From Fibrobacter sp. UBA1765 (GTDB lineage Bacteria > Fibrobacterota > Fibrobacteria > Fibrobacterales > Fibrobacteraceae), in contig DCGZ01000157.1 of assembly GCA_002314675.1 (NCBI GenBank), forward strand, positions 177 through 64,176: a stretch of 64,000 nucleotides of DNA, in the 5' to 3' direction. Both the position numbers and the translations under genes were made by a program. Shown here one piece after another: positions 10,325-62,398 of the stretch (positions are counted from its first letter, which is position 1; every line of letters starts with the position of its first letter). The notes beneath the pieces are model-generated. The model ran no database searches. It was not told the DNA's origin and saw only the letters and a list, made by a program, of their open reading frames with translations.

Positions 10325-11625
10325 TGCTTAAGACTATTTTCGGCGAAGATATTAATCCGCAAGTTCCAACGCGCCTTTTGAAAATTGCAGAAGACATTCG
10401 TGCTGCGGGTGGCAGGGCCTACCTTGTAGGAGGCTTTGTTCGCGATACGTTGCTCGGGAATGCGGATAGCCGCGACTACGATGTGGAGGTTTATAACATT
10501 TCGCAAGAAACTTTGCTGAGTGTGCTTTCCAAATATGGTCGCGCCGATGCCGTTGGCCGTGCATTTGGCGTGTATCATCTTTCCATGAAAGGTTTGTCCC
10601 TTGATTTTTCGTTCCCGCGCACAGAGAGCAAGGTCGGTCGCGGCCACAAGGGCTTTGTCGTAGAAACGCATACGGACCTTTCCTTTAAGGAAGCCGCATT
10701 CCGCAGGGACTTTACCGTGAATGCCATGGGAATGGAACTCCCTACTTTTGAATTGAACGACCCGTACAATGGCGAAGGTGATTTGCGAAACGGCGTATTA
10801 CGCCATGTCGGTAGCGCCTTTGCCGAGGATTCGCTCCGCATTTTACGCGGTGTTCAATTTGCTGCACGTTTCCGTTTGCAACTTGCCGACGAAACGCGTG
10901 ACCTTTGTAGAACTCTTTCTTTAGACGATCTTTCCAAGGAACGCATCTACGAAGAATTCAAGAAGTGGCTTTTAAAACCGGGACTTCGTTCCCTTGGTTT
11001 AAAGACATTCCTCGCCATGGACCTTTTGCGCTTTTTCCCGGAAATTTTACCGTTGAATGATTCTTATGAATTGCTTGGTGAATATCTCGACAACATTTCT
11101 GAAGCGGCGGTAGAATTCCCTGAAGAATCCAGAATGATTCTTGCTTTTGCTTCACTTTTGAGCGGCAATGCAGAGCCTGCGGAATCTGTAAAGTTCCTCG
11201 ACAAGATGACGAATGAAATCAAGATTTTAAAGGGCGTTCCTCTTTTGCTTGAGTATGCTCCAAAGGTGAAAACAGCAATTTCTGAAAGAACTTTGCCGAG
11301 CGACTCCGAAATCCGTCGGTTGAGTGTCGCCTTGAATGGGCTTGAAATGTTCCTTGCTTTTGTTGCAGCAAACCCGGTTCTTGATCAAGATGCCCGTTCT
11401 GATTTTGCCTGCAATTTTAAATTAAGGGCTCGTGAACTTGGAGTCTTTGAACATGCTCCGGAGCCGTACTTGACTGGGCGCTATTTGATGAGCATCGGCC
11501 AAAAACCAGGCAAGCTTTTTGGGGAACTTATCAAGGAAAGCTTTGAACTGCAGCTAGATGGCAAGTTGACTTGTGTTAGCGATGCAGAAGCCTGGGCCTA
11601 TGCCAGATTGGCAGAAAAATCCTAG
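10324..11625 (+). CDS. tRNA nucleotidyltransferase / poly(A) polymerase family protein (CCA-adding-like)
   Basis: YLVGGFVRDTLLG...DYDVEV and RRDFTVNAM class-II nucleotidyltransferase motifs. TAATG overlap with the upstream ORF. Confidence 0.8.
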   Translation: MLKTIFGEDINPQVPTRLLKIAEDIRAAGGRAYLVGGFVRDTLLGNADSRDYDVEVYNISQETLLSVLSKYGRADAVGRAFGVYHLSMKGLSLDFSFPRTESKVGRGHKGFVVETHTDLSFKEAAFRRDFTVNAMGMELPTFELNDPYNGEGDLRNGVLRHVGSAFAEDSLRILRGVQFAARFRLQLADETRDLCRTLSLDDLSKERIYEEFKKWLLKPGLRSLGLKTFLAMDLLRFFPEILPLNDSYELLGEYLDNISEAAVEFPEESRMILAFASLLSGNAEPAESVKFLDKMTNEIKILKGVPLLLEYAPKVKTAISERTLPSDSEIRRLSVALNGLEMFLAFVAANPVLDQDARSDFACNFKLRARELGVFEHAPEPYLTGRYLMSIGQKPGKLFGELIKESFELQLDGKLTCVSDAEAWAYARLAEKS

Positions 11626-26321: not shown

Positions 26322-26600
26322 GGTTGCCGCGCTTCGCTCGCAACGACAAGGAGAATCGCAGTTTCTGAACTCTGTCTTTTTTCTTGCCTCTTAAGTTGTC
26401 ATCACGAGCAACGCGAAGTGATCCAGAACACTTGTCATTCACTAGCTAGATTGCTTCAATCCTTCGGATTTCGCAATGACATGGAAAATGCTATTTCTGG
26501 TTTCTGTCCTGGTTTGCCGCGCTTCGCACGCAACGACAAGGAGAATCGCAGTTTCTGAACTCTGTCTTCTGTACTCTGTATTCTGTCTTCTATTTCCTGA
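26322..26600. repeat. composite intergenic repeat: 56-nt direct repeat pair, hairpin core and CT-word tail
   Basis: ggtt(t)gccgcgcttcgc[t/a]cgcaacgacaaggagaatcgcagtttctgaactctgtct occurs at 26322-26377 and 26511-26567. A hairpin-rich core at 26395-26483 contains tcgcaatgaca. A (ttctgt)-like word run lies at 26561-26600. Confidence 0.8.
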
Positions 26601-31825: not shown

Positions 31826-32605
31826 ATGAGTGAAAAACCGATTTATTCCGCTGAAGATTTGGGCATATCTATTGCAGCTTCGCTATCAAAGAATGTGATA
31901 ACGGTAGGGGACACGTTTGATTATACGGTGACTATTACCTGGGAGTCGAACAGTGTTCTTGCGTTAGTTCCAAAGACAAGTATTTATGCCAAGGGACTTT
32001 CGACTGTTGGAGTGAAGCAAAATTCTTCTCGCGATGTAAAAGACGGCAAGACCGTTTCTAAGAACGAGTTTGTCTATAAGGTTGCTGCAACTGATACTGG
32101 TTCTGTGACAATTCCGGAACTAAGCTTTATGGTTCCTGTCGAGGGTGCGCATACGATTGGACTTCGTACGCCTCCGAAGGAGTTTCATGTAGATGCCCCG
32201 GTAAATTTTTTGCCTTTTGTTGTAGGCCTTGTTGTGGCTTTTGCGCTGGTGTGTGCCTTTGTGATTAGAAAGCGCAAGCGTGCTGCGGCAGTTGCAAAAA
32301 AGGTGGCAAAAGCTGCCGAAGAAAATACGATCCGCGAAGAAATGCTTGTGTTGAAGTCTCGTGTAAAGGTTGCAGAAAGTAGGGAATGGCTACTTGCCCT
32401 GGAAACTGCAATGAAGCAATTTGCGAAGTGGAAGTTTGATAGTGAAGACCTTGAAGCTTTGGTAAGGAATGGCTCCATGGCAGATTTTGCAGAAACTGTC
32501 AAGCTGTTTTCGGAAGCCCGTTATGGAGGCGGGAACAGGGACCAGCTTGCAAACCTTGAAACATGGAAGGTAACTTTTAAACTGATGAACTTGGAAGAGG
32601 AGTAG
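31826..32605 (+). CDS. BatD-like / DUF4381-like single-pass membrane protein
   Basis: VGDTFDYTVTITWE Ig-like block, then a TM helix (FLPFVVGLVVAFALVCAFVI) and a helical tail. The architecture repeats in ORF 35382-36326. Confidence 0.55.
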   Translation: MSEKPIYSAEDLGISIAASLSKNVITVGDTFDYTVTITWESNSVLALVPKTSIYAKGLSTVGVKQNSSRDVKDGKTVSKNEFVYKVAATDTGSVTIPELSFMVPVEGAHTIGLRTPPKEFHVDAPVNFLPFVVGLVVAFALVCAFVIRKRKRAAAVAKKVAKAAEENTIREEMLVLKSRVKVAESREWLLALETAMKQFAKWKFDSEDLEALVRNGSMADFAETVKLFSEARYGGGNRDQLANLETWKVTFKLMNLEEE

Positions 32606-32922
32606 AAGAGACGAAAGAACGCTTCGCTGGTAGACGAGAGACGAAAGAAATGTTGATTTCCAATGTTTTAGAGATTAGAGGCTAGGTTCTAGAGACTAGA
32701 ATTAAGAATGAAATGTCATTGCGAGGGCCTTTAGGCCCGTGGCAATCCAGGACATGTCGCTTCAGTGTTCCTGGATGGCCGCGCGACCCTCGCCAAGACA
32801 TGGGAAGCTACAATCCTCTAGTTTCTTGTTTCTTCCATCTTCCGTCTTCTGACTTCTGTCCTCTTTCTTGCATCTTGCGTCTTGCTCTTGTATCTAAGAT
32901 TTGTAATAGAGATATTTAATAA
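32606..32922. repeat. ORF-less hairpin cassette: GA-word left arm, structured core, CT-word right arm
   Basis: Left arm (agacgaaag words and tagag/ctaga words, 32606-32702). Core 32714-32803 begins tgtcattgcgagggcctttaggccc, the reverse complement of the tcgcaatgaca core at 26474. The right arm is pyrimidine words (32818-32898). Confidence 0.7.
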
Positions 32923-33918
32923 ATGGAGAATAAAATGGATATTCAGGAACTTTCTGAAAAGGTTAGAGAAAAAAGTGTTTTTTGCGCAAACTTGATGCGC
33001 GAAGTGGAAGGTACCGTGATTGGCCAGAAGGCCATGGTCGAAAGCATTTTGACCGGTGTGCTCGCCGGTGGCCATGTGTTGCTTGAAGGTTTGCCGGGTC
33101 TTGCAAAGACAACTGCAGTAAAAGCTTTTGCCGATGCATTCAAGCTTGACTTTAAGCGTATCCAGTTTACACCGGACTTGCTCCCGGCAGATTTGCTCGG
33201 TACTACGATTTACAATGCCAAGGAAGCTCGATTTGAAATCCGCAAGGGACCATTGTTCAGTAACCTGATCTTGGCTGATGAAATTAACCGTGCTCCAAGC
33301 AAGGTACAGAGCGCCCTCCTTGAAGCTATGCAGGAACGCACCATTACCATTGGCGATGAATCCTTTAAGCTTGAAGAGCCGTTCCTTGTGCTTGCTACGC
33401 AGAACCCGATTGAACAGGAAGGTACATACCCGCTCCCTGAAGCGCAAGTAGACCGTTTCCTTTTGAAGGTGAAGGTTAGCTACCCGAACAAGAGTGACGA
33501 AATGCGCATTCTTGAAGCTGTAAGCGGCAACGGTTTGCGCACTCCGGCTCAGGTTGCCACAAAGGAAGACATTCTTGCTGCTCGTGAACTTGTGCGTTCC
33601 ATTTACGTGGACGAACGCGTTCGCGAATACATTGTGAATATTGTACTTGCAACCCGCGACCCGTCTAGCATCAAGAAGGCAGAACTTGCCGGCTTCATTG
33701 AAGTGGGGGCAAGCCCACGTGCTTCCATTGGCCTTGCTCAGGCTGCAAAGGCCCATGCATTTATCCAGGGCCGCGCTTACGTTACTCCGGAAGATGTAAA
33801 GGCTGTTGCCATGGAAGTACTGCGCCATCGCTTGGTGCTTAGTTACGAAGCCGAAGCCGAAGAAGTTGCCGCCGAAACTGTCGTGCAGAAGATTCTTGAT
33901 TCTGTTGAAGTGCCTTAA
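32923..33918 (+). CDS. moxR: MoxR-family AAA+ ATPase
   Basis: Walker A GLPGLAKT and Walker B ILADEINRA. Also LATQNPIEQEGTYPLPEAQVDRF. Alternative ATG at 32935. Confidence 0.9.
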   Translation: MENKMDIQELSEKVREKSVFCANLMREVEGTVIGQKAMVESILTGVLAGGHVLLEGLPGLAKTTAVKAFADAFKLDFKRIQFTPDLLPADLLGTTIYNAKEARFEIRKGPLFSNLILADEINRAPSKVQSALLEAMQERTITIGDESFKLEEPFLVLATQNPIEQEGTYPLPEAQVDRFLLKVKVSYPNKSDEMRILEAVSGNGLRTPAQVATKEDILAARELVRSIYVDERVREYIVNIVLATRDPSSIKKAELAGFIEVGASPRASIGLAQAAKAHAFIQGRAYVTPEDVKAVAMEVLRHRLVLSYEAEAEEVAAETVVQKILDSVEVP

Positions 33919-33933
33919 GCGGCTTTGCCGCTT

Positions 33934-34390
33934 AGAGAGCCAGATGCAAGATCAAGATGCAAGAGTAAATTAGGCACCTTCGGTGCGGGAATATATATGG
34001 AAAAACTGAAAAAATTTGTTCTTTGGCAAAAGGCTATGAATGTAGCTGAGAATGTGTATAGACTGACGCAAAAATTTCCAAGGGATGAAATTTATGGTTT
34101 GACATCTCAAATGCGAAGGGCCGCCGTATCAGTGGCAAGCAATATTGCTGAAGGTCAAAGTAGGTCTAGTGTTCTTGACCGCAATAGATTTCTTGAAATT
34201 GCAGATGGCTCTAAAATGGAATTGCAAACGCAATTAATGATTGCTGTTCGAATTGGATATACCAAGCAAGATGATATAGAAGATAGTTTGAATGTTCTGT
34301 CTGAAATCGGTAAAATGATTCATGCATTGAAGTTAAAACAGGTTTAGTTGAACATTTCTTGTATCTTGCGTCTTGCTCTTGCATCTTAAC
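33934..34390 (+). mobile_element. IVS-like cassette 1: four-helix-bundle gene bracketed by inverted word repeats
   Basis: Left arm 33941-33965 (cagatgcaagatcaagatgcaagag) pairs with right arm 34365-34388 at 21 of 24 positions without gaps. A gcacc-ttcg-gtgc tetraloop hairpin at 33974-33986 lies just before the ORF. Confidence 0.5.
33997..34347 (+). CDS. four-helix-bundle protein (23S rRNA intervening-sequence protein / Avd-like family)
   Basis: WQKAMNVAENVYRLTQKFPRDEIYGLTSQMRRAAVSVASNIAEGQSR...GSKMELQTQL is the family signature. Confidence 0.85.
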   Translation: MEKLKKFVLWQKAMNVAENVYRLTQKFPRDEIYGLTSQMRRAAVSVASNIAEGQSRSSVLDRNRFLEIADGSKMELQTQLMIAVRIGYTKQDDIEDSLNVLSEIGKMIHALKLKQV

Positions 34391-34391
34391 T

Positions 34392-35279
34392 ATGTTAAAT
34401 AAAGATATTCTAAAAACTGTTGCTCGCATTGAGCTTTCTGTGAAGGGGAAGCTTGATGCCGTGATGACTGGCGCGTACCATAGTTCCTTTAAGGGGAACG
34501 GTATGGAGTTTAGCGAGGTACGTGAATATGTGCCTGGTGACGACGTGCGTTCTATTGACTGGAATGTTACGGCTCGTACGGGAACTCCCTATATTAAGAA
34601 GTTCGTAGAAGAACGCGAACTTTCGATGCTCTTGATGATTGACGCTAGTTCAAGTTCTGAATTTGGTAGCGGTACGCAAATGAAGGGCGAGGCCATGGCT
34701 GCGCTCACTGCGCTCCTTGCCTTTGCAGCAACAAAGAACAACGACAAGGTTGGGCTTTTGATTTTTACGGATCAGGTTGAACTCTTTATTCCGCCAGCAA
34801 AGGGCCGTAAGCATGTGCTTAGACTTGTCCGAGAAATTCTTTACTTTAAGCCGCAGCACCATGGTACGAATTTGCAGGTCGCCTTGGATTATGCGGGCAA
34901 GATTTTGACACGCCGCTCCGTTGTCGTTGTGATGTCTGATTTTTTGGATGCTGGTTTTGACAGTGCCTTTAAGGTGCTACGTAAAAAGCATGATGTACTT
35001 GCTGTTGCAGTAAATGATGTTCGTGAAACGGAATTGCCGCCTGTTGGCCTCGTGGAACTTGAAGACCCTGAAACTGGAGAAACGCTGTTGATCGACACGG
35101 GCGACGCAAGTTTCCGTGAAGCGTTCATGCGCGAATCAAGAAAGAGTGCAAGGGAAATCGCAGAACGTTTTGCAAGGATGTCCGTTGACTTTGTGAAGGT
35201 CATGGTAAAGGATGATTTCCAGGAAACTGCCGCACCATTGATTGAACATTTTAGAAGGCGTGCAAAGGCTAGGGCTTAA
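34392..35279 (+). CDS. DUF58 domain protein (MoxR-associated, VWA-like)
   Basis: VREYVPGDDVRSIDWNVTAR motif. Sits in the expected moxR-DUF58-batA order. Start at ATG 34392. Confidence 0.85.
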   Translation: MLNKDILKTVARIELSVKGKLDAVMTGAYHSSFKGNGMEFSEVREYVPGDDVRSIDWNVTARTGTPYIKKFVEERELSMLLMIDASSSSEFGSGTQMKGEAMAALTALLAFAATKNNDKVGLLIFTDQVELFIPPAKGRKHVLRLVREILYFKPQHHGTNLQVALDYAGKILTRRSVVVVMSDFLDAGFDSAFKVLRKKHDVLAVAVNDVRETELPPVGLVELEDPETGETLLIDTGDASFREAFMRESRKSAREIAERFARMSVDFVKVMVKDDFQETAAPLIEHFRRRAKARA

Positions 35280-35381
35280 TGGTTAGGATCTGGTGGTTTG
35301 GATTTAGGATCTAGGATGTAGGTTTTTGTTATGAAATGTTGGAATTGCATATTTAGACGAAATGTTAATGGTGACCGTGGT

Positions 35382-36326
35382 ATGTCTATTATAAAATGTT
35401 GCAAGCAATTTTCTTGCATCTTGCATCTGCATCTTGCATCTAGAGTTTTTCTGTTTTCTGTTTTCTGTCTTCTGTCCTCTGTCAATGCCTTCGATGTTAG
35501 CGTGAATGCGTCTGTAAGTGCATCGCAGGTGTACATTGGCGATATCTTTACTTACCAGGTGGAAGTTACAGCACCAAAGGGCGCTTCTGTAGAATTGCCA
35601 AGTTTTGTAGGGAACCTTGGAAGCTTTGAAGTGCGTGATTGGAATACTTCGGAGACTCCGGCTGGTGAAACTTCTAAAACTATATGGACTGCGACGCTAA
35701 ATACTTTTGTGAGTGGAGATTTTGCACTTGCTCCGCAGCAAGTTGTTGTTGTGTATGATGGCGATTCTGTGCAGACTGTTACCGACCCGGTGCCTGTTCG
35801 TGTTTCGATGCGCACGACAGATGCGGATGTCGACATATTAGAAATCGAGGAACCGATGGAAATGCCGGGTACTCCATGGTATGTTTATGTACTGATTGCG
35901 CTTGGCATTTTGTTAGTTGCTGGACTTGTGTATTTTGCAATCAGGAATTGGAAGCGAACTGAAGTTGTGCGTATATTGCCACCGTATGAAGAAGCAGTTT
36001 TTGCTCTAAAAAAATTGAAGGATGGGAACCTTTCTGCAAACGACCAGGCGGCATTCTTTATGGAATTAGGCGTTGTTGTGCGCCGTTATGTGGAACGCAG
36101 GTTTGGAACGGATATTTTGGATGCGACGACTGCAGAACTTAAAAAGCGCATGGCGCATGTTCATGGTTTGCCAGAAGCGTTTAAGGCAGGAGTTGTAAGC
36201 CTTGCCGAAGAAACTGAACCTGTAAAGTTTGCAAAGATGAAACTTGGTGATGACAGGGTTGAGCATTGGATGAATTTTGCAGAAGAAATGGTGGAGAAGA
36301 CGAAGCCAACTGATCAGGAAAAGTAG
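35382..36326 (+). CDS. BatD-like / DUF4381-like single-pass membrane protein
   Basis: Signal-like RVFLFSVFCLLSSVNA, Ig-like IGDIFTYQVEVTAPKG, a TM helix (YVYVLIALGILLVAGLVYFAI) and a helical tail. Start is uncertain (ATG at 35331 or 35382). Confidence 0.6.
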   Translation: MSIIKCCKQFSCILHLHLASRVFLFSVFCLLSSVNAFDVSVNASVSASQVYIGDIFTYQVEVTAPKGASVELPSFVGNLGSFEVRDWNTSETPAGETSKTIWTATLNTFVSGDFALAPQQVVVVYDGDSVQTVTDPVPVRVSMRTTDADVDILEIEEPMEMPGTPWYVYVLIALGILLVAGLVYFAIRNWKRTEVVRILPPYEEAVFALKKLKDGNLSANDQAAFFMELGVVVRRYVERRFGTDILDATTAELKKRMAHVHGLPEAFKAGVVSLAEETEPVKFAKMKLGDDRVEHWMNFAEEMVEKTKPTDQEK

Positions 36327-36760
36327 TCTGTTGCTGTCGGCAGTCGGCTGAAATTGTAGTGATAAAGAGGTTTTTAATGGCGGGTTATCAAGATTTGGTT
36401 GTGTGGCAAAAGGCAATGGATGTTGTTGTTTTGGTTTATGAATTGACTGCAAAATTTCCGAAAGATGAAATTTTTGGATTAGTTTCTCAAATGAGGCGTG
36501 CCGCAGTGTCAATAGCAAGTAATATCGCAGAAGGTCAGGGCCGTAGAACGCAGAATGAGTTTAACCACTTTTTGGGTATTGCGAATGGTTCTAAAGCTGA
36601 GTTAGAAACGCAACTGCAATTATGTGAAAGAATTAAATATGTGGTGCGTGAAGATATTGAATTAGTGCTTAATTTATTGGATGATATTGGAAGGATGATT
36701 TATGGATTGCAAGGTAAATTACGTTAAATATTCAGCCGACAGCAACAGCCGACAGCAAAC
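36327..36760 (+). mobile_element. IVS-like cassette 2: four-helix-bundle gene bracketed by inverted repeats
   Basis: Left arm 36327-36352 and right arm 36731-36760 share complementary blocks ttcagccgac (10 nt) and gccgacagcaa (11 nt), separated by a 7-nt bulge on the right arm. Confidence 0.5.
36377..36727 (+). CDS. four-helix-bundle protein (23S rRNA intervening-sequence protein / Avd-like family)
   Basis: VVWQKAMDVVVLVYELTAKFPKDEIFGLVSQMRRAAVSIASNIAEGQGR...GSKAELETQL. RBS aaagagg. Confidence 0.85.
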   Translation: MAGYQDLVVWQKAMDVVVLVYELTAKFPKDEIFGLVSQMRRAAVSIASNIAEGQGRRTQNEFNHFLGIANGSKAELETQLQLCERIKYVVREDIELVLNLLDDIGRMIYGLQGKLR

Positions 36761-36772
36761 AAGGAAACTGTT

Positions 36773-37867
36773 ATGGATATTCTAGGTTACCATTTGCAGA
36801 ATCCGGAGGCGCTGTTTTTGCTTGCGCTTGTTCCGGTGCTTATTGCGGAATATGTATACCGCATGAAAAAACGCAAGAGCACGGTGAAGTTCCCGGCGCT
36901 TGCCATTGCAAAACGCGCAAAGCCGAGTGCCCGCGTTAAGTTTAGGCATATTGTACCGTTACTACGTTTGTTAGCTCTGTGCTGTTTTGTCGTGGCGCTT
37001 GCACGCCCCCAGAGCGCAACTGAAGTGGAATACACGTCTACTGATGGCGTAGACATTATGCTTGCGCTTGATGTATCTGGTTCCATGTCTACGCTTGATA
37101 TGCTCACGAAGGGTGATCGCATAAAGCTTGGTGTGATGAATGCAGACAAGGTGTATCGCTCGGGTGAATTCTGGAAGTTTAGCCGTTTAGGCTATGCAAA
37201 GGGCGTGATTGCGGACTTTATACAAAAGCGTGAAAGTGACCGTATTGGACTTTCTGTTTTTGCAGGTCGCAGTTTTACGCAGTGCCCGCTTACTTTGGAT
37301 TATGGTTCATTGCTTGAAATTTTGACTGCGGTTGATGATTCTTCTGCAACAGGAAACGGCACGGCGATTGGCGATGGCCTTATGAATTCCCTTGCTCGCC
37401 TAGAAAAGTCTGAAGCTAAATCACGTGTGGTTGTGCTTTTGACTGATGGTCGTGACAATGCTAGCCTTGTGCCACCGATGCAAGCGGCAGAAGTTGCAAA
37501 GACGCTTGGCGTTAAGGTGTATACAGTTGGCGTGGGTAAAAAGAACGGCGAAGTTCTTGCGTTCCAGCAGAATCCGTGGACAGGCGAAATTTCTTGGGGA
37601 GAACGAGAGATTCTTCCGGAAGAGGGCATTGATGAAAATATTTTGCGTGGGATTTCTGAAAAGACGGGTGGACGTTTTTACAGGGCCGAGAACAAGGAAC
37701 AGCTTGAAAACATTTACGAAGAAATCAATAATTTGGAAAAAACTGAAATTCATACTATTGCATACGCACGTTATGCTGAGAAATTTTACCCATGGCTGCT
37801 TGCTGGCGCTTTGCTGATTCTTGCGGAATTGCTGCTTGCCAATACCAAGTTTGTGAGAATTCCGTAG
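36773..37867 (+). CDS. batA: BatA-type VWA-domain membrane protein
   Basis: N-terminal BatA-like TM segment, MIDAS LALDVSGSMS, VVLLTDGRDN and a C-terminal TM. Confidence 0.85.
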   Translation: MDILGYHLQNPEALFLLALVPVLIAEYVYRMKKRKSTVKFPALAIAKRAKPSARVKFRHIVPLLRLLALCCFVVALARPQSATEVEYTSTDGVDIMLALDVSGSMSTLDMLTKGDRIKLGVMNADKVYRSGEFWKFSRLGYAKGVIADFIQKRESDRIGLSVFAGRSFTQCPLTLDYGSLLEILTAVDDSSATGNGTAIGDGLMNSLARLEKSEAKSRVVVLLTDGRDNASLVPPMQAAEVAKTLGVKVYTVGVGKKNGEVLAFQQNPWTGEISWGEREILPEEGIDENILRGISEKTGGRFYRAENKEQLENIYEEINNLEKTEIHTIAYARYAEKFYPWLLAGALLILAELLLANTKFVRIP

Positions 37868-37922
37868 TGAGAGGCAAGACGCAAGATCAAGACGCAAAAA
37901 TGAAATTTAAGAGTTGTATAAT

Positions 37923-38951
37923 ATGAGATTTGCAGAACCGATGTTTTTGTGGGGACTTTTTTCACTCCCTCTTTTAGCTTTACTTTTTTGGTATTCTTAC
38001 CATCGTAGAAAAAAGCTTGCTGAAAGGTTTGTTTCGCTTTCGATGCTTCCGAAAGTGGCTACGAGTCTTTCTCCTTGGCGTCGCTTGATAAAGTCTACGT
38101 TGCTTTTATTTGCTGTCGCATTCCTATTTGTTGCCCTTGCAAGGCCGCAATGGGGCATGGTCATGGAGCATGTGGAACGCAAGGGGCTTGACCTTGTTCT
38201 TTTACAGGATATTTCGCTTTCAATGCTTGCAGAAGATGTGAAGCCGAGCAGGCTTGTGCGTTCTAAACATGAAATTTCGGCCTTCCTTGAAAACTTGAGT
38301 GGAGACCGAGTCGGTCTTGTTGCGTTCAGTGGCGAGGCGAAGGTAATGGTGCCCTTGACACTTGACTATGGTACCGTGCAGACTATGCTTTCTGAATTGA
38401 ATCCGGGTTGGCTTATGCCGGGAACGAATCTTGAAAATGCAATTAGGGCTGGTATGCGCATGTTCAAGAATTCAGGAGCTGCCTCAAAATATTCTGTGAT
38501 GATCCTGATGAGCGATGGCGAAGAACTTGAAGCTTCTGCTGTTGCCGCTGCAAGGGAAGCTGCCGAAATGGGAATCAAGATTTACACAATTGGAATTGGT
38601 TCGCTTGATGGCGTTCCTATTCCGGTTCCATCAAGAAACGGAGACGTGCTTTACAAGAAGGATCGCCAAGGGAACATTGTGACAACGCATTTGGAAGAAC
38701 GTACCTTGCAAGATATTGCAAATGCAACTGGTGCTGCATACTTCCATGCTTCTCCAAGTGAATTCCAGCTGCAGAAAGTGCTTGAAGAAATTGCTTCCTT
38801 AGAAAAGAAGGAACATTCAAGCGACATGGCAGAAGGCTATAAGGATCGTTACCAGATTTTTCTTGCCATCGCAGCGTTACTTTTTTTGGCCGAGGCAGTT
38901 GTTTCTGAAAGAGGACGCAAGCGCAAGTTGTTGAACGGGAGGTTTTCGTGA
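37923..38951 (+). CDS. batB: BatB-type VWA-domain membrane protein
   Basis: N-terminal TM, VWA core (LLQDISLSM, LMSDGEE, IYTIGIG) and a C-terminal TM. First ATG is at 37923. Confidence 0.8.
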   Translation: MRFAEPMFLWGLFSLPLLALLFWYSYHRRKKLAERFVSLSMLPKVATSLSPWRRLIKSTLLLFAVAFLFVALARPQWGMVMEHVERKGLDLVLLQDISLSMLAEDVKPSRLVRSKHEISAFLENLSGDRVGLVAFSGEAKVMVPLTLDYGTVQTMLSELNPGWLMPGTNLENAIRAGMRMFKNSGAASKYSVMILMSDGEELEASAVAAAREAAEMGIKIYTIGIGSLDGVPIPVPSRNGDVLYKKDRQGNIVTTHLEERTLQDIANATGAAYFHASPSEFQLQKVLEEIASLEKKEHSSDMAEGYKDRYQIFLAIAALLFLAEAVVSERGRKRKLLNGRFS

Positions 38952-39712
38952 TGAGACGAGAGAATCGAATGCTGAAACATACGATTGCCTGTTTTCTGTT
39001 ATCTGTTTTCTTATTTCTGCCTAGTGCGTTTGCAGATGCAGTGAAGGATGGCAATAAGCTTTTTGCAGGTGCTGATTATGCAGGGGCTCTTGAAAAGTAC
39101 CAGAAGGCCCGTGAAGCAGACCCGGCTAACCCTATTTTGTTCTACAACATAGGAACATGCCAATATATGCTTGGAAATTACGATGAGGCCGCAAAGGAAT
39201 TGCAGAGTGCCGTAAGGATGCCAGATTCTTTGCTTGCTGCAAAGGCTGCCTACAATTTGGCAAATACGCATTTTAGAGCAGGCGAAAAACTAGAACCGGC
39301 ACAGAAAATTCAAAAGTTCAGAGAGTCGCTTGCTTATTTGAAGCGTGCCGTAGAACTTGCCCCGGATTTTGAAAAGGCAAAAAAGAACGCCGAAATTGTG
39401 CAGCGCCGTTTGAAGGAGGCGCTTGATGAACAGAAGGAACAAAATCAGGATAATCAAAACCAGGATCAGAAACAGCCAGAAATGAGCGATGCCGCAAAGG
39501 CGGCTCTTGCCCGTGCAGAACAGCTGTGCAAGCAAGGCGAATATGATGCTACAAAGCAGGTTCTGGAAAAGATTATAGCTGAAGATGAAACAGCTTCCCA
39601 GTTGAATTCGTATCTCCAACGCATAGAGGATATTATCGATATACAGGCTGGCCGTAAGCCAAAGGCAAAGATCGATGCCTCGAATGCCGATAATGATTTG
39701 GAGGTGATATGA
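38951..39712 (+). CDS. batC: BatC-like TPR protein
   Basis: Signal peptide ...CFLLSVFLFLPSAFA, TPR repeats and a Q/E-rich segment. TGATG overlap with batB. Alternative start ATG 38969. Confidence 0.7.
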   Translation: MRRENRMLKHTIACFLLSVFLFLPSAFADAVKDGNKLFAGADYAGALEKYQKAREADPANPILFYNIGTCQYMLGNYDEAAKELQSAVRMPDSLLAAKAAYNLANTHFRAGEKLEPAQKIQKFRESLAYLKRAVELAPDFEKAKKNAEIVQRRLKEALDEQKEQNQDNQNQDQKQPEMSDAAKAALARAEQLCKQGEYDATKQVLEKIIAEDETASQLNSYLQRIEDIIDIQAGRKPKAKIDASNADNDLEVI

Positions 39713-39717
39713 TTAGA

Positions 39718-39745
39718 GACGAAAGACGAAAGACGAAAGATGAAA
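39718..39745. repeat. heptamer tandem repeat (gacgaaa x3 + gatgaaa)
   Basis: Read directly after the batC stop. Followed by aggagtcag x2 at 39759-39778. Confidence 0.8.
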
Positions 39746-39792
39746 GGTATAGGAATAGGAGTCAGTTACAGGAGTCAGGAACTGAAAATTGC

Positions 39793-40491
39793 ATGGCTCA
39801 GAAAATTGTGTTTCTGATATTGTTGCTTGCGGTGTGTGCTTTTGCCTCGCCTAAGGCTAAGACTGCGTCTGCGTACTATGGCGATGCCGCGTACCTGTAT
39901 TTTCAGAATAGATTGCCCTCTGCAGAAATCGCTTGTGATGAAGGTCTTGAGAAGTATCCGAATGATTCTAAACTGCAAAATTTAAAGGCTAGAATCCAGG
40001 AAGCCAAGGATGAACAGCAAAAGCAGAATGAACAGAATAATCCTAATGGTCAAAATAACCAGGACCAAAATAAGGATCAGAACAAGGACGAAAACCAGGA
40101 CAAGAACAATCAAGACAAGCAGGACGAAAATCAGCAGAACAAGGGCGATTCCAGTTCCAGCGGCAGTGATGAAAATCAGCAGGATCAGGGCCAAAATGGA
40201 GAATCTTCAAGTTCTTCTGAGGGTGGCGAAAATCAGCAGAATCAGAATGGCTCTGGTGAAAGTTCTTCTAGCGACATGTCTTCTAGCTCAAATGGCGAAG
40301 GTGAAAATCAGGAACAGGGTGGGCAAGAAAACCAGCAGGAAAATGCCGATGAGCCAAGGGATCCTGAAGATCCAAATGCCATGTCTAGGGAACAGGCATC
40401 TCAGCTATTGAAGGATTTCGATGAACAGAATGGTGAGCGAAAGCCGTGGAAACCGGCACGAGGTCAGGTTTACCCGGAAAAGGACTGGTAA
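39793..40491 (+). CDS. secreted TPR-like protein with long Gln/Asn/Asp/Ser low-complexity region (Bat operon tail gene)
   Basis: Signal peptide MAQKIVFLILLLAVCAFA. About 130 aa of NQD/QNK/SSS low complexity. Conserved-looking C-terminus MSREQASQLLKDFDEQ. Confidence 0.6.
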   Translation: MAQKIVFLILLLAVCAFASPKAKTASAYYGDAAYLYFQNRLPSAEIACDEGLEKYPNDSKLQNLKARIQEAKDEQQKQNEQNNPNGQNNQDQNKDQNKDENQDKNNQDKQDENQQNKGDSSSSGSDENQQDQGQNGESSSSSEGGENQQNQNGSGESSSSDMSSSSNGEGENQEQGGQENQQENADEPRDPEDPNAMSREQASQLLKDFDEQNGERKPWKPARGQVYPEKDW

Positions 40492-59463: not shown

Positions 59464-62398
59464 TTATTTCTCGCCAGGAAATTTTGGTTTGTGGGATTTT
59501 TCAATGGGACAGTTGTCAAATGCGTTTTTATTGTTTGTTACATTGTTAACATTCCATTCAGAGATGTCTCTGTTGAATTTGGAATCACAGAATATCCAAT
59601 CCATGTCAGCTACATTGCTAACATTCCATTTAGAAATGTCTCCATTGAATTTAGAATCACAGAACATCCAACTCATATCTTTTACATTACTTACGTTCCA
59701 GTTTGAAATGTCTCCGTTGAATTGACAATTTTGGAACATGCCTTTCATGTTTGTGACGTTACCTATGTTCCATTTGGAGATGTCTCCGTCAAATTCAGAA
59801 CATTCGAACATACCACTCATGTTCTTTACGTTGCCCGTATTCCATTTGGAAATGTCTCCATTGAATTGAGAGTTGCTGAAAATACAGCTCATGTCAGTGA
59901 TGTTGCTTGTATCAATAAAATTAAGGTTGCATTTATGGCCTTTTATTTCGATAGTCTGCTTGATTAAACTTTCCAAATGTTCTTTGTCTCGCACCTTGAT
60001 GGATATGTTGTTTCGGAATTTTGAAATAGAAAATAAAGAATGTCCATCTGTGATATTAGATATGTTCCATTTAGAGATGTCTCTATTGAATTGAGAACCT
60101 CTGAATATGCTTCTCGTATTTGTCACACTGCTTACATTCCATTCGGAGATGTCTCCATTGAATTGAGAACCTCTGAACAAGTCACTCATGTCAGTGACGT
60201 TGCTTACATTCCACTCAGAGATGTCTCCGTTGAATAATGCTTCACAGAACATACTTCTCATGTCAATGACATTGCTTACGTTCCATTCGGAGATGTCTCT
60301 GTTGAATTGAGAATTTCTGAACATGTAGCTCATGTCAGTGACCTTGCTTACGTTCCATTCAGAGAAATCTCCGTCAAATTGTGAGTTTTCGAACATATGA
60401 CTCATGTTCGTTACGTTGCTCACATTCCATTTAGAGATGTCTCCGTTGAATCTGGAGCCGCTGAACATATAGCTCATGTCAGTGATGTTGCTGACGTCAA
60501 TAAAGTTTAGATTGCAGTAGCAGCCGTTTCGTACGATAGTCTGCTTGATTAAACTTTCCAAATGTTCTTTGTCTCGCGCCTTGATGGATATGTTTGGAAA
60601 GAATTTGGAAATAGAAATCAAAGAATGCTCATCTGTGATTTTAGATATATTCCATTTAGAGATGTCTCCGTTGAATTGGGAATCACTGAATATCCAATCC
60701 ATGTCAGCTACATTGCTAACATTCCATTTAGAGATGTCTCTAGTGAATTGAGAATTTCTGAACATGTAGCTCATGTCAGTGACATTGCTTACGTTCCATT
60801 TAGAGATATCTCCGTTGAATTTAGATCCGCTGAACATACTTCTCATGTCAGTAACGTTGCTAACATTCCATTTAGAGATGTCTCCGTTGAAGCTGGAACC
60901 ATTGAACATTTCGCTCATGTTCGTTACGTTGCTCACATTCCATCTAGAAATGTCACCATTGAATTGGGAATTTGAATAGGAATCACCTTCGTCATCAGAC
61001 CAGGAAGTAAATAAGTTACTCATGTCAGTGATGTTGCTGACGTCAATAAAGTTTAGATTGCAGTAGCAGCCGTTTCGTACGATAGTCTGATTGATTAAAC
61101 TTTCCAAATGTTCTTTGTCTCGCGCCTTGATGGATATGTTTGGAAAGAATTTGGAAAGGGAAATCAAAGAACGCTCATCTGTTTCAGATACATTCCATTT
61201 AGAGATGTCGCCGTTGAATTTAGACCTGCTGAATATCCAATCCATGTCATCTACATTGCTTACATTCCATTTAGAGATGTCTCTATTGAATTCAGACCCG
61301 CTGAACATGTGGCTCATGTCAGTGACATTGCTTACATTCCATTCGGAGATGTCTCCGTTGAATTGAGAATTTCTGAACATGTAGCTCATGTTCGTTACGT
61401 TGCTCACATCCCACTTGGAAATGTCTCCGTTGAATTTAGAATCCAGAAACATGACGCTCATGTCGGTCACATTGCTCATGTTCCATTTTGAGATGTTGCC
61501 ATTGAATTTAGACCCACTGAACATGTGGCTCATGTCAGTGACATTGCTTACATCCCATTTGCAAATGTCTCCGTTGAATTGAGAATATTCGAACATTCCG
61601 CTCATATTTGTGACGTTGCTTACGTCCCATTTAGAGATGTCTCCGTTGAAGCTGGAACCATTGAACATATGGCTCATGTCCGTTACGTTGCTCACATTCC
61701 ATCTAGAAATGTCTCCGTTGAATCGGGAATTGGAATAGGAATTGCCTTCGTCGTCGGACCAAGAATCATCTTCATCATCAGGCCAGGAAGCAAATAAATA
61801 ACTCATGTCGGTAACATTACTGACATCAATGAAATTCAAGTCGCAATTGTAGCCGTTTAGTTCAATAGTTTGCTTAATCAAATTTTCCAAATGGCTTTTG
61901 TCTCGAGCCTTGATAGATATGTTGGTGTGAAATTTAGATAGAAAAATCAAAGAATGTTCATCAGTTTCATTGGTGATTTTGGATACATTCCATCTAGAAA
62001 TGTCTCCGTTGAATCGTGAGCTGGAATAGGAATCGCCTTCGTCGTCGGACCAGGAATCATCTTCATCATCCGACCAGGAACCAAATAAATCGCTCATGTT
62101 TGTCACGTTGCTCACGTCCCATTCAGAGATGTCTCCGTTGAATTGAGACTCGTTGAACATGCCCTCCATGTTTGTTACATTGCTCACATCCCACTTGGAG
62201 ATGTCCCCATTGAATTGTGAATTGCAGAACATTTCGCTCATGTTTGTCACATTGCTCACATCCCATTTGGAAATGTCTCCGTTGAATTCAGAATCCTTGA
62301 ACATTTCACTCATGTCCGTCACATTACTTACATTAATGAAATTTAGATCGCATTCGTTTCCTAATTTTTGAATCGCCTCACGAATAAGTTCGGATAAG
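59464..62398 (-). repeat. coding tandem repeat array (about 75-nt units in 5 higher-order modules)
   Basis: Module heads at approx. 59890, 60475, 61021, 61802 and 62322. 60475-60612 and 61021-61158 are almost identical at the DNA level. Confidence 0.9.

Follow-up and report, generated by a model that had tools for sequence, protein, structure and literature searches.

We analysed 64,000 nucleotides (nt) of Fibrobacter sp. UBA1765 (hereafter the window; assembly GCA_002314675.1, contig DCGZ01000157.1, positions 177-64,176 of the forward strand). Between moxR and the DUF58 gene of a Bat/MoxR operon lies a gene for an IVP, a four-helix-bundle protein of the PF05635/TIGR02436 family, bracketed by inverted arrays of heptamer repeats. 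This gene family was first found inside 23S rRNA intervening sequences (IVSs), for example those of Leptospira. In our reading, the moxR-DUF58 spacer (33919-34391, hereafter site 1) is an accessory, exchangeable IVS-type cassette whose arms would pair in RNA into a duplex that most likely serves as an RNase III substrate or at least insulates itself; we put the probability of this reading at about 0.55. The cassette is an insertion between operon genes, it has been replaced as a whole module between near-identical strains, and its architecture of inverted heptamer arrays with a defined polarity recurs across the IVP family.

The IVP genes and their operon

The host operon was recognised by Pfam searches of the window's open reading frames (ORFs), and the coordinates of all features are collected in Table 1. 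The cassette is bounded on the left by the moxR stop codon and on the right by the start codon of DUF58. The first IVP gene encodes a protein (IVP1, or W1) that scores 126.2 bits against PF05635 (cut-off 33.8) and 122.4 bits against TIGR02436 (cut-off 24), and matches the bAvd-like Pfam family more weakly (E 4e-10). This bears out a preliminary description of this DNA, made from the sequence alone, which had assigned the gene to the IVP family and related it to Avd. By sequence similarity, the nearest solved relative of IVP1 is the Xanthomonas campestris homopentamer XCC0516 (PDB 2GSC, E 5.3e-26). IVP1 keeps all 22 columns that are invariant across 28 diverse members, and the core motifs WQ, QxRRAxxS, SNIAEG and GS..E..TQ are present. 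A second IVP (IVP2, or W2), encoded between the DUF4381-like gene and batA (site 2), scores 134.3 bits against PF05635 and 126.8 bits against TIGR02436 and shares 58% identity with IVP1. Neither protein matched any PADLOC defence model.

The closest relative of the window by MoxR is the metagenome-assembled genome (MAG) JAZLFR010000010, 95% identical and referred to as L001 (L-numbers denote comparison loci), followed by other Fibrobacter MAGs and F. intestinalis. Between the window and L001, the site-1 IVP genes differ with a nonsynonymous proportion (pN) of 0.24 and a synonymous proportion (pS) of 0.75. Since pN is about 0.25 in same-site IVP pairs, the IVP genes are under purifying selection. 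A scan of the operon for sigma-70 promoters and intrinsic terminators gave no enrichment over shuffles and nothing specific to a cassette, with the proviso that Fibrobacter promoters possibly lie outside the model. Rfam searches at gathering and E-value thresholds matched no family in the window, the operon, L081, L086 or the L002 spacer. The site-1 layout recurs in independent assemblies from separate sequencing runs, so an assembly artefact is excluded.

Inverted heptamer arrays bracket the site-1 cassette

The arms of the site-1 cassette (33942-33964 and 34364-34386) are 23 nt long and 91% complementary, with 21 Watson-Crick pairs, one wobble (U33958.G34370) and one mismatch (U33952.C34376). 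The paired part of the 3' arm ends 5 nt ahead of the DUF58 ATG. We assessed chance complementarity by sliding a 351-nt virtual gene along the whole window (2540 positions) and by 2000 shuffles. IVP1 has the highest inverted-repeat score, 17; IVP2 follows with 14, and the remaining 2538 positions do not exceed 12. None of the shuffles reached the score of either arm pair, and the site-1 pair also ranks first in an inverted-repeat scan of the whole window. A flanking stem had been proposed in the preliminary description; it is real and exceeds chance, with the 3' arm shifted by 1 nt from where it had been drawn and true arms of 23 nt. Folding of 33920-34400 (481 nt) with RNAfold, a check recommended at that time, places the stem as the closure of the cassette in both the minimum free energy (MFE) and the centroid structures (z = -2.2). 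Arm-to-arm lengths are 445 nt at site 1 and 439 nt at site 2. Among seven assemblies, the sole arm polymorphism is G/A at 34370, which converts U.G to U-A and is neutral for pairing.

Two small hairpins accompany the arms. The first directly follows the moxR stop codon and lies within the swapped module; L001 carries another hairpin at this position, AAUGGC-GGA-GCCAUU, followed by a U run. The second lies between the 5' arm and the IVP start codon, where a UUCG-type tetraloop had been described. The position was correct, but the structure is a 5-bp stem with a 3-nt UUC loop rather than a canonical C(UUCG)G tetraloop. Its L001 counterpart, UUGCC-UUC-GGCAA, has a compensatory outer stem. We considered the CUUCGG mini-hairpin as a family feature and rejected it: among Fibrobacter cassettes it is confined to site 1 (window, L081 and L001), and one locus of the family census described below, L099, has only a CTTCGG string, farther upstream.

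Insertion and replacement as a module

Cassette-free relatives have moxR and DUF58 only 1 nt apart, and the site-1 element is therefore an insertion between operon genes. The 1-nt gap (TAATATG) is found in six Fibrobacter relatives and gaps of 8-29 nt in four more, which agrees with the statement in the preliminary description that the two genes usually lie close together. In F. intestinalis-like operons, the DUF4381-like gene overlaps batA and batA overlaps batB (ATGA). L002-L004, whose MoxR is 90% identical, have no IVP at either site, and the IVP is absent from orthologous operons in about 15 related Fibrobacter genomes and from the bat operons of other phyla. Empty sites and a differing allele between near-identical strains together give the sporadic presence and absence characteristic of IVSs.

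The window and L001 share 82-100% DNA identity in the bat genes and 47-67% exactly over 33923-34399 and 36319-36798; the first 60 nt of DUF58 are 100% identical. Same-site IVP pairs have pS values of 0.75 (site 1) and 0.62 (site 2), compared with 0.60-0.71 for cross-site paralogues and 0.42-0.55 for flanking genes. Vertical descent of the site-1 cassettes from a common ancestor of the two loci is rejected, given a pS of 0.75 against 0.42-0.45 in the adjacent genes. At site 2, the difference from the flank (0.62 against 0.55) is small.

Locus L081 captures an exchange directly. It is 98-100% identical to L001 over moxR, DUF58, the DUF4381-like gene, the site-2 cassette, batA, batB and beyond, but its site-1 cassette is 99% identical to that of the window, and L001 there reaches only about 60%. 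The left breakpoint lies at 33909-33919: the last L001-type allele stands 10 nt before the moxR stop codon, and window-type sequence begins at the first base past it. The right breakpoint falls between 34390 and 34472, with the DUF58 ATG at 34392. The cassette was thus replaced as a whole module between near-identical strains, with breakpoints at gene boundaries. The spacer at 35280-35485 was considered as a second swap in L081 and rejected, its differences from L001 being indels of heptamer multiples in homologous arrays.

At the cassette junctions we found no consistent direct repeat that could represent a target-site duplication; CTTAA occurs at both ends only in the window, and neither in L001 nor at site 2. 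A Pfam scan of the operon ORFs detected no recombinase, transposase, integrase or nuclease domain in or beside the cassettes. The W1 and W2 proteins were found only in the same context, in independent assemblies, and no identical cassette was seen at two different loci. Because neither a target-site duplication nor a recombinase is seen, and because both IVPs keep to one context, the exchange is read as allelic replacement and not as transposition to new sites.

A second cassette with unrelated arms

The second cassette (36323-36761) has an arm sequence that is unrelated to that of the first and unique to it within the operon. Its arm duplex is predicted at -39.8 kcal/mol, with 34 pairs and one 7-nt bulge, and IVP gene 2 is found in the same genomic context in six contigs. 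L001 carries IVP genes at both of the same junctions but with other arms, built of AGAGGAC and GGAGTCA units. The four Fibrobacter cassettes therefore have four arm sequences, and every MFE fold is closed by the arms with 26-37 pairs. The gene upstream of site 2 varies at its end. In L169 (967-1995), a TAG to GAG change removes the DUF4381-like stop codon and the ORF extends through the second-cassette 5' arm, giving 342 instead of 331 aa; in L001 and L081, the ORF upstream of the second cassette ends within the array and directly abuts the IVP start codon. The second cassette, the heptamer nature of the arms and the ORF-less elements at other junctions were absent from the preliminary description.

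Inverted heptamers are a general feature of IVP loci

The family census drew on 80 metagenomic IVP loci, and scoring covered 75 non-redundant cassettes. Flanks of 100 nt were scored for tandem period, and inverted-repeat scores were judged against mismatched-pair controls. RNA duplexfold on 120-nt flanks was too noisy (control mean -53, observed -73 kcal/mol), and ungapped inverted-repeat and period scoring was therefore used. Period 7 scores best in 39 of 40 arrays on the upstream side and in all 43 on the downstream side. Complementarity between upstream and downstream flanks exceeds the 95th percentile of the controls in 55 of the 75 loci and the 99th in 38. Within 120 nt of an IVP ORF, the density of period-7 arrays is 28.5 times that in the rest of these loci. 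The median 5' arm ends 29 nt before the start codon and the median 3' arm begins 5 nt after the stop codon, overlapping the end of the ORF in 17 of 45 cases. The arms are polar: G exceeds C in the 5' arm of 34 cassettes, against 7 with the opposite bias (p = 2.5e-5). The family lies between unrelated genes in these 75 other loci, and crude ORF calling places most neighbouring genes in the same orientation at short distances (31 loci (+,+) against 2 (-,-)). In an independent set of viral contigs, 26 of 42 IVP loci exceed the same 95th-percentile threshold, again with period 7. G-rich heptamers, an IVP ORF and complementary heptamers are the general design of the IVP family.

The heptamer units vary freely among loci (GGGACTA, GTGGTGA, CAGTGGG, AGTTGTC and others), with a weak YAGT bias only. 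Flanking complementarity is conserved in metagenomic and viral loci although the arm sequences differ; a survey of the family's flanks had been proposed in the preliminary description. The idea that each IVP pairs specifically with its own unit was tried and dropped, because proteins less than 60% identical show hardly any correlation between their identity and the unit. Some census arms consist of telomere-like G-rich heptamers, (TTTAGGG)n and (TTAGGGA)n, at loci L118 and L089, and L156 carries (ACTGGGG)n, which we take to be the complement of the cyanobacterial repeat STRR1. We found no description of gene-bracketing heptamer arrays as an IVP-family feature in the searchable literature, nor, outside subscription journals, any work connecting IVP genes with inverted heptamers or presenting them as cassettes resident in operons.

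Comparison with known systems

The 23S rRNA IVSs of Leptospira and Coxiella, located in helix 45, carry the same PF05635 gene family as the window cassettes. The Coxiella burnetii IVS measures 444 nt by sequence comparison and 428 nt by rapid amplification of cDNA ends; its 28-bp stem has one mismatch and one bulge and is cut mid-stem by RNase III in vitro, and tandem GACAGAT heptamers of strain-variable copy number lie 5' of its S23p (IVP) ORF (PMC4990558). The window cassettes share this size, the terminal inverted repeats that form a 23-28 bp stem looping out the ORF, the heptamers 5' of the ORF (AGATGCA here and AGAGGAC in L001), the strain-dependent copy number and the sporadic distribution. 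Like an rRNA IVS, the site-1 cassette is bordered by a long complementary stem. Other properties set the two apart. The window cassettes occupy spacers of a polycistronic mRNA instead of an rRNA helix: Rfam finds no rRNA in the window, and the flanking genes at site 1 are moxR and DUF58. Excision by RNase III has been demonstrated for rRNA IVSs and would apply here by analogy, and cleavage here would split an operon transcript instead of fragmenting an rRNA. The Coxiella ORF is reported to be decaying and probably untranslated, whereas the window IVP ORFs are intact and under purifying selection. Although it works in the manner of an rRNA IVS, the element lacks an rRNA host and is therefore not one; we describe it as an IVS-type IVP cassette in an mRNA operon. 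The earlier proposal of an IVS-like cassette colonising an operon spacer, here seen to behave as an exchangeable module, is upheld by the empty sites that it had asked to be sought in related operons, by the conserved flanking complementarity, by the L081/L001 exchange and by the Coxiella-like size and geometry.

Being intergenic and built of three or more tandem 7-nt units, the site-1 arms also resemble the short tandemly repeated repetitive (STRR) sequences of cyanobacteria, whose heptamer units include CCCCAGT. In X. campestris, Rehm et al. described 186 GGGAATC heptamer arrays, 70 of them in convergent pairs; array #15 lies between bccP (XCC0517) and XCC0516 and overlaps the XCC0516 start, with no connection drawn to the IVP family (PMC4692102). 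XCC0516, the protein of PDB 2GSC, is a member of the IVP family, and so an IVP gene stands beside that array. A leader-type regulatory role has been proposed for the TAACTGA arrays of Beggiatoa (PMC4679880). Xanthomonas, Beggiatoa and STRR heptamers all share with the present arms the period of 7, the intergenic position near start codons and the variable copy number, and inverted (convergent) pairs are frequent in Xanthomonas. In contrast, the Xanthomonas and Beggiatoa papers treat the arrays as G-quadruplex, regulatory or unexplained sequences and do not link them to IVPs (PMC4692102, PMC4679880), and the arrays described here bracket a gene and belong to a swapped module.

The remaining comparisons are more distant. 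The Avd proteins of diversity-generating retroelements belong to a homologous four-helix-bundle fold family, but IVP1 scores 37.8 bits against NF033474, below the equivalog cut-off of 80, and the operon contains no reverse transcriptase and no template or variable repeat. The cassette is not such a retroelement, because of this Avd score and because the neighbouring ORFs, all of the Bat/MoxR system, include no reverse transcriptase. Repetitive extragenic palindromes and bacterial interspersed mosaic elements with their RAYT transposases, and miniature inverted-repeat transposable elements with insertion-sequence transposases, are likewise small, intergenic, hairpin-forming and tolerated in operons, with gene-carrying and gene-less versions side by side; integron cassettes likewise are promoterless genes exchanged as modules. 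Unlike these, the present cassettes have no conserved terminal sequence, no consistent direct repeat and arms that are cassette-specific tandem heptamers, and the Pfam scan of the operon, which included no integrase-directed search, showed no transposase, RAYT or integrase. In addition, the repeat brackets the gene instead of forming a single 3' attC-like site, a comparison made without an attC model search. In cas operons, Zhang et al. (2013) found 18 IVP genes, to which they ascribed a Cas-associated function (PMC3936711). There too the gene stands between co-oriented genes of an unrelated operon, for example cmr3 and cmr2, but where that study reads a Cas-linked function, the present evidence favours opportunistic insertion at gene junctions.

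Proposed mechanism and competing explanations

The cassette was inserted precisely at the junction where the moxR stop codon meets the start codon of DUF58. It is co-oriented with the operon and apparently relies on read-through transcription. We propose that the arms pair in the transcript to form a duplex of at least 23 bp with the IVP ORF looped out. By analogy with rRNA IVSs, the duplex would most likely be cut by RNase III, which would make the bat mRNA a processed transcript, or would at least sequester the insert and so insulate it. Such a duplex could let the insertion persist in a tightly coupled operon and would also uncouple the flanking cistrons. With 5 nt between the 3' arm and the ATG of DUF58, the stem should occlude DUF58 initiation unless it is opened or cleaved. 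The cassette itself is exchanged as a whole module.

Several observations weigh against this proposal. At the non-Watson-Crick positions of 44 stems, G.U and A.C number 48 and 42 (p = 0.6); there is no G.U excess and therefore no strand-specific RNA signature. Because the whole operon is colonised by heptamer arrays, two G-rich GCAAGA-type arrays (33942 and 37870) and three C-rich TCTTGC arrays (32866, 34357 and 35412) are mutually complementary. The 33942 arm pairs at -34.9 kcal/mol with its cognate array at 34357, at -35.5 kcal/mol with 35412 and at -33.3 kcal/mol with 32866, and the last of these competitors is transcribed first. About a quarter of IVP loci lack a significant inverted repeat, arm lengths in the census are often unbalanced, and heptamer arrays also stand alone. 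Finally, the replacement is precise, with neither a recombinase nor a target-site duplication to explain it. The earlier suggestion that the whole gene is extruded on one stem accordingly holds for the predicted MFE and centroid folds, and is qualified by the missing G.U excess and the competing TCTTGCA arrays.

The main rival, which we regard as unlikely, is a mobile element that acts at the DNA level. The inverted arrays would be its working ends, for example through single-stranded fold-back or hairpin formation, the IVP would act in trans, the ORF-less array elements would be non-autonomous derivatives, and the RNA stem would be a by-product. Such an element would account for cassette-precise replacement in a backbone otherwise 98-100% identical and for the ORF-less elements of the same polarity, with arrays of the same unit, at several operon junctions. 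It is equally at ease with the symmetric mismatches, which are expected where neither transcript strand is under selection, with the passage of the inverted-heptamer design into phage contigs together with the IVP gene, and with the abundance of inverted GGGAATC pairs in Xanthomonas, one array of which abuts XCC0516. It fits poorly with cassettes that neither contain nor adjoin a transposase, integrase or nuclease domain, a 116-aa helical bundle being an unlikely recombinase, and with the lack of shared terminal sequences and target-site duplications. Nor is an identical cassette seen at two loci, W1 and W2 being always in the same context, and a pure DNA model does not require the strong co-orientation with host genes.

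We find it distinctly improbable that the arrays are contingency-type leader elements that bind protein or tune translation of the downstream cistron, with complementarity secondary. Arrays do lie directly 5' of start codons at every operon junction, and upstream of moxR in other Fibrobacter; 5-12 nt separate the 3' arms from the start codon that follows; strains differ in copy number by multiples of 7 nt, as Coxiella strains do; and the proposal for the Beggiatoa arrays is similar (PMC4679880). A leader role leaves three findings unexplained, namely the inverted recurrence of the unit on both sides of the IVP gene (55 of 75 loci), the 28-fold enrichment of arrays beside IVP genes, and the G-rich 5' and C-rich 3' polarity. 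Still less probable is neutral junk, in which slippage-prone repeats with chance complementarity carry a decaying hitch-hiker gene and none of it functions. Fast array change by indels, unbalanced arm lengths and the decaying Coxiella ORF would suit that explanation, but complementarity lies far above chance here and family-wide, the 22 invariant residues are kept with pN far below pS, and polarity and placement are conserved across phyla and phage contigs. That the IVP is a genuine MoxR/Bat partner and fixed operon member, with the stem an ordinary regulatory structure, is hardly credible: both genes are intact, share the operon's orientation and show purifying selection, and IVP genes have been tied functionally to cas operons before (PMC3936711), but the gene is missing from the Fibrobacter and other bat operons noted above, is swapped for a paralogue only about 58% identical between near-identical strains, and occurs between unrelated genes in the census loci, in cas operons, beside accB in Xanthomonas and in rRNA.

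The IVS-type cassette reading has wider consequences. Heptamer tandem repeats (STRR and related sequences) are abundant in several phyla and unexplained, and to our knowledge the ORF encoded in IVSs has had no known role since the 1990s. One architecture ties together the IVS ORF, the heptamer repeats and the operon-resident IVP genes. A more far-reaching possibility, which we offer tentatively and hold to be doubtful as a whole, has three joint parts: that IVP genes with inverted heptamers form a widespread, hitherto unrecognised class of mobile cassettes at junctions in operons, rRNA genes and phage genomes; that gene-less arrays (the Fibrobacter spacers, Xanthomonas GGGAATC, STRR and Beggiatoa TAACTGA) are their non-autonomous relatives; and that the Avd-like IVP pentamer is a trans-acting factor that propagates or exchanges the cassettes. 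If true, three long-unexplained features, namely the IVS ORF, bacterial heptamer repeats and stray four-helix-bundle genes in operons, would share a single explanation. If the arms are RNase III substrates, polycistronic mRNAs would acquire processing sites from the cassettes, and translationally coupled cistrons would be uncoupled, a general route by which a selfish insert could rewire operon expression. For annotation, the presence of an IVP gene in an operon should not be read as membership of the host system.

Other heptamer arrays and elements around the operon

Eleven of the 12 period-7 arrays that Tandem Repeats Finder (TRF) detects in the window fall within this operon (32831-39746). 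The moxR-leader element runs from G-rich AGACGAA arrays through a GC-rich hairpin core (TCATTGCGAGGGCC..GGCCCGTGGCAATCCAGGAC..GTTCCTGGAT) to C-rich TCTTCCA/TCTTCTG/TCTTGCA arrays. It ends in four TCTTGCA copies, and the array at 32866-32895 is complementary to the 33942 arm, as is the TCTTGCA array of the DUF58/DUF4381-like spacer. The leader element is 92-100% identical to L001, above the coding flanks, has the same polarity as the IVP cassettes and gave no Rfam match. A 68-aa ORF within it (32713-32919) matched no family and is probably spurious. The spacer at 35280-35485 differs between strains by indels of heptamer multiples. We considered the cores of the ORF-less spacers as IVP remnants and rejected this, there being no tblastn similarity.

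Table 1. Positions of the cassettes, host genes and heptamer elements in the window
Feature	Positions	Strand	Evidence
ORF-less heptamer element in moxR leader, 317 nt	32606-32922 (arrays and hairpin core 32604-32895)	+	TRF, sequence reading
moxR (AAA_3 ATPase), upstream host gene	32923-33918	+	Pfam AAA_3, E 2.2e-64
Hairpin GCGGC-UUU-GCCGC	33919-33931	+	sequence reading
Site-1 5' arm, G-rich array AGATGCA x3.4	33942-33964	+	inverted-repeat search, TRF period 7
Small hairpin GCACC-UUC-GGUGC	33974-33986	+	local fold, -7.2 kcal/mol
IVP gene 1 (116 aa)	33997-34347	+	PF05635 23S_rRNA_IVP, E 7.7e-37
Site-1 3' arm, C-rich array TCTTGCA x4.6	34357-34387	+	inverted-repeat search, TRF
DUF58 gene, downstream host gene	34392-35279	+	Pfam DUF58, E 1.3e-87
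ORF-less array-rich spacer, DUF58/DUF4381-like: GGATCTA, TCTTGCA (35412-41), TTCTGTC (35447-83)	35283-35485	+	
Second-cassette 5' arm, CTGTCGG/CAGTCGG heptamers, overlapping upstream gene's stop codon	36323-36352	+	
IVP gene 2 (116 aa)	36377-36727	+	Pfam, E 2.4e-39; tblastn
Second-cassette 3' arm, CAGCCGA heptamers, ending 12 nt before batA ATG	36731-36761	+	inverted-repeat search, TRF
Solo G-rich array AGACGCA x4, batA-batB spacer (batA/batB overlap in relatives)	37868-37899	+	
AGACGAA x4 and GGAGTCA x2 arrays, junction of TPR gene and next gene	39712-39782	+	

The junctions of the bat operon look like insertion hot spots. In L002 (10991-11117), and also in L003 and L004, which are the nearest relatives without an IVP, the moxR-DUF58 spacer is a 127-nt GC-rich element with three hairpins inside a closing stem. 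All three hairpins show compensatory changes between L002/L003 and L004, no Rfam family matches, and the element may be an undescribed structured RNA. The same loci have two paralogous lipoprotein-like genes (300 and 271 aa) between batA and batB (L002 14054-15897), and L005 has a lipoprotein-like ORF of about 47 aa between moxR and DUF58 (10985-11159). In F. succinogenes-like loci (L005-L051), C-rich heptamers (TCTCTCG x4, or CTCATAA/CCTACTG variants) lie at a conserved position about 68 nt upstream of moxR; these loci have no IVP gene within 10 kb, and in most of them DUF58 no longer follows moxR.

Heptamer arrays lengthen mechanically called ORFs at 35280-35485, 37868-37923, 38948-39020 and 39709-39795, and mis-called starts or extended ORFs, such as those at 35331, 37914, 38948 and 39709, are a second point of caution for annotation. 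The true starts are probably ATG 35486 for the DUF4381-like gene (not 35331), ATG 37924 for batB (not TTG 37914) and ATG 39795 for the last gene (not 39709). A CTGTTTT array (38989-39019) lies within the apparent signal peptide of the TPR protein.

Outside the operon, a motif of about 32 nt, GTCATCACGAGCAACGCGAAGYRATCCAGAAC, occurs with GTCATT...AATGAC hairpins at the intergenic positions 26398-26429 and 26433-26482. It adjoins a TTCTGTA heptamer array (26553-26591) and is found reverse-complemented in the batA-batB spacer of L001 (14930-14990). The motif and its hairpins look like a dispersed hairpin element family associated with arrays. Farther downstream, 59539-62333 contains tandem repeats with a 72-nt period (24 aa) and 144- and 216-nt super-periods; these are unrelated to the cassettes and probably encode a large repeat protein.

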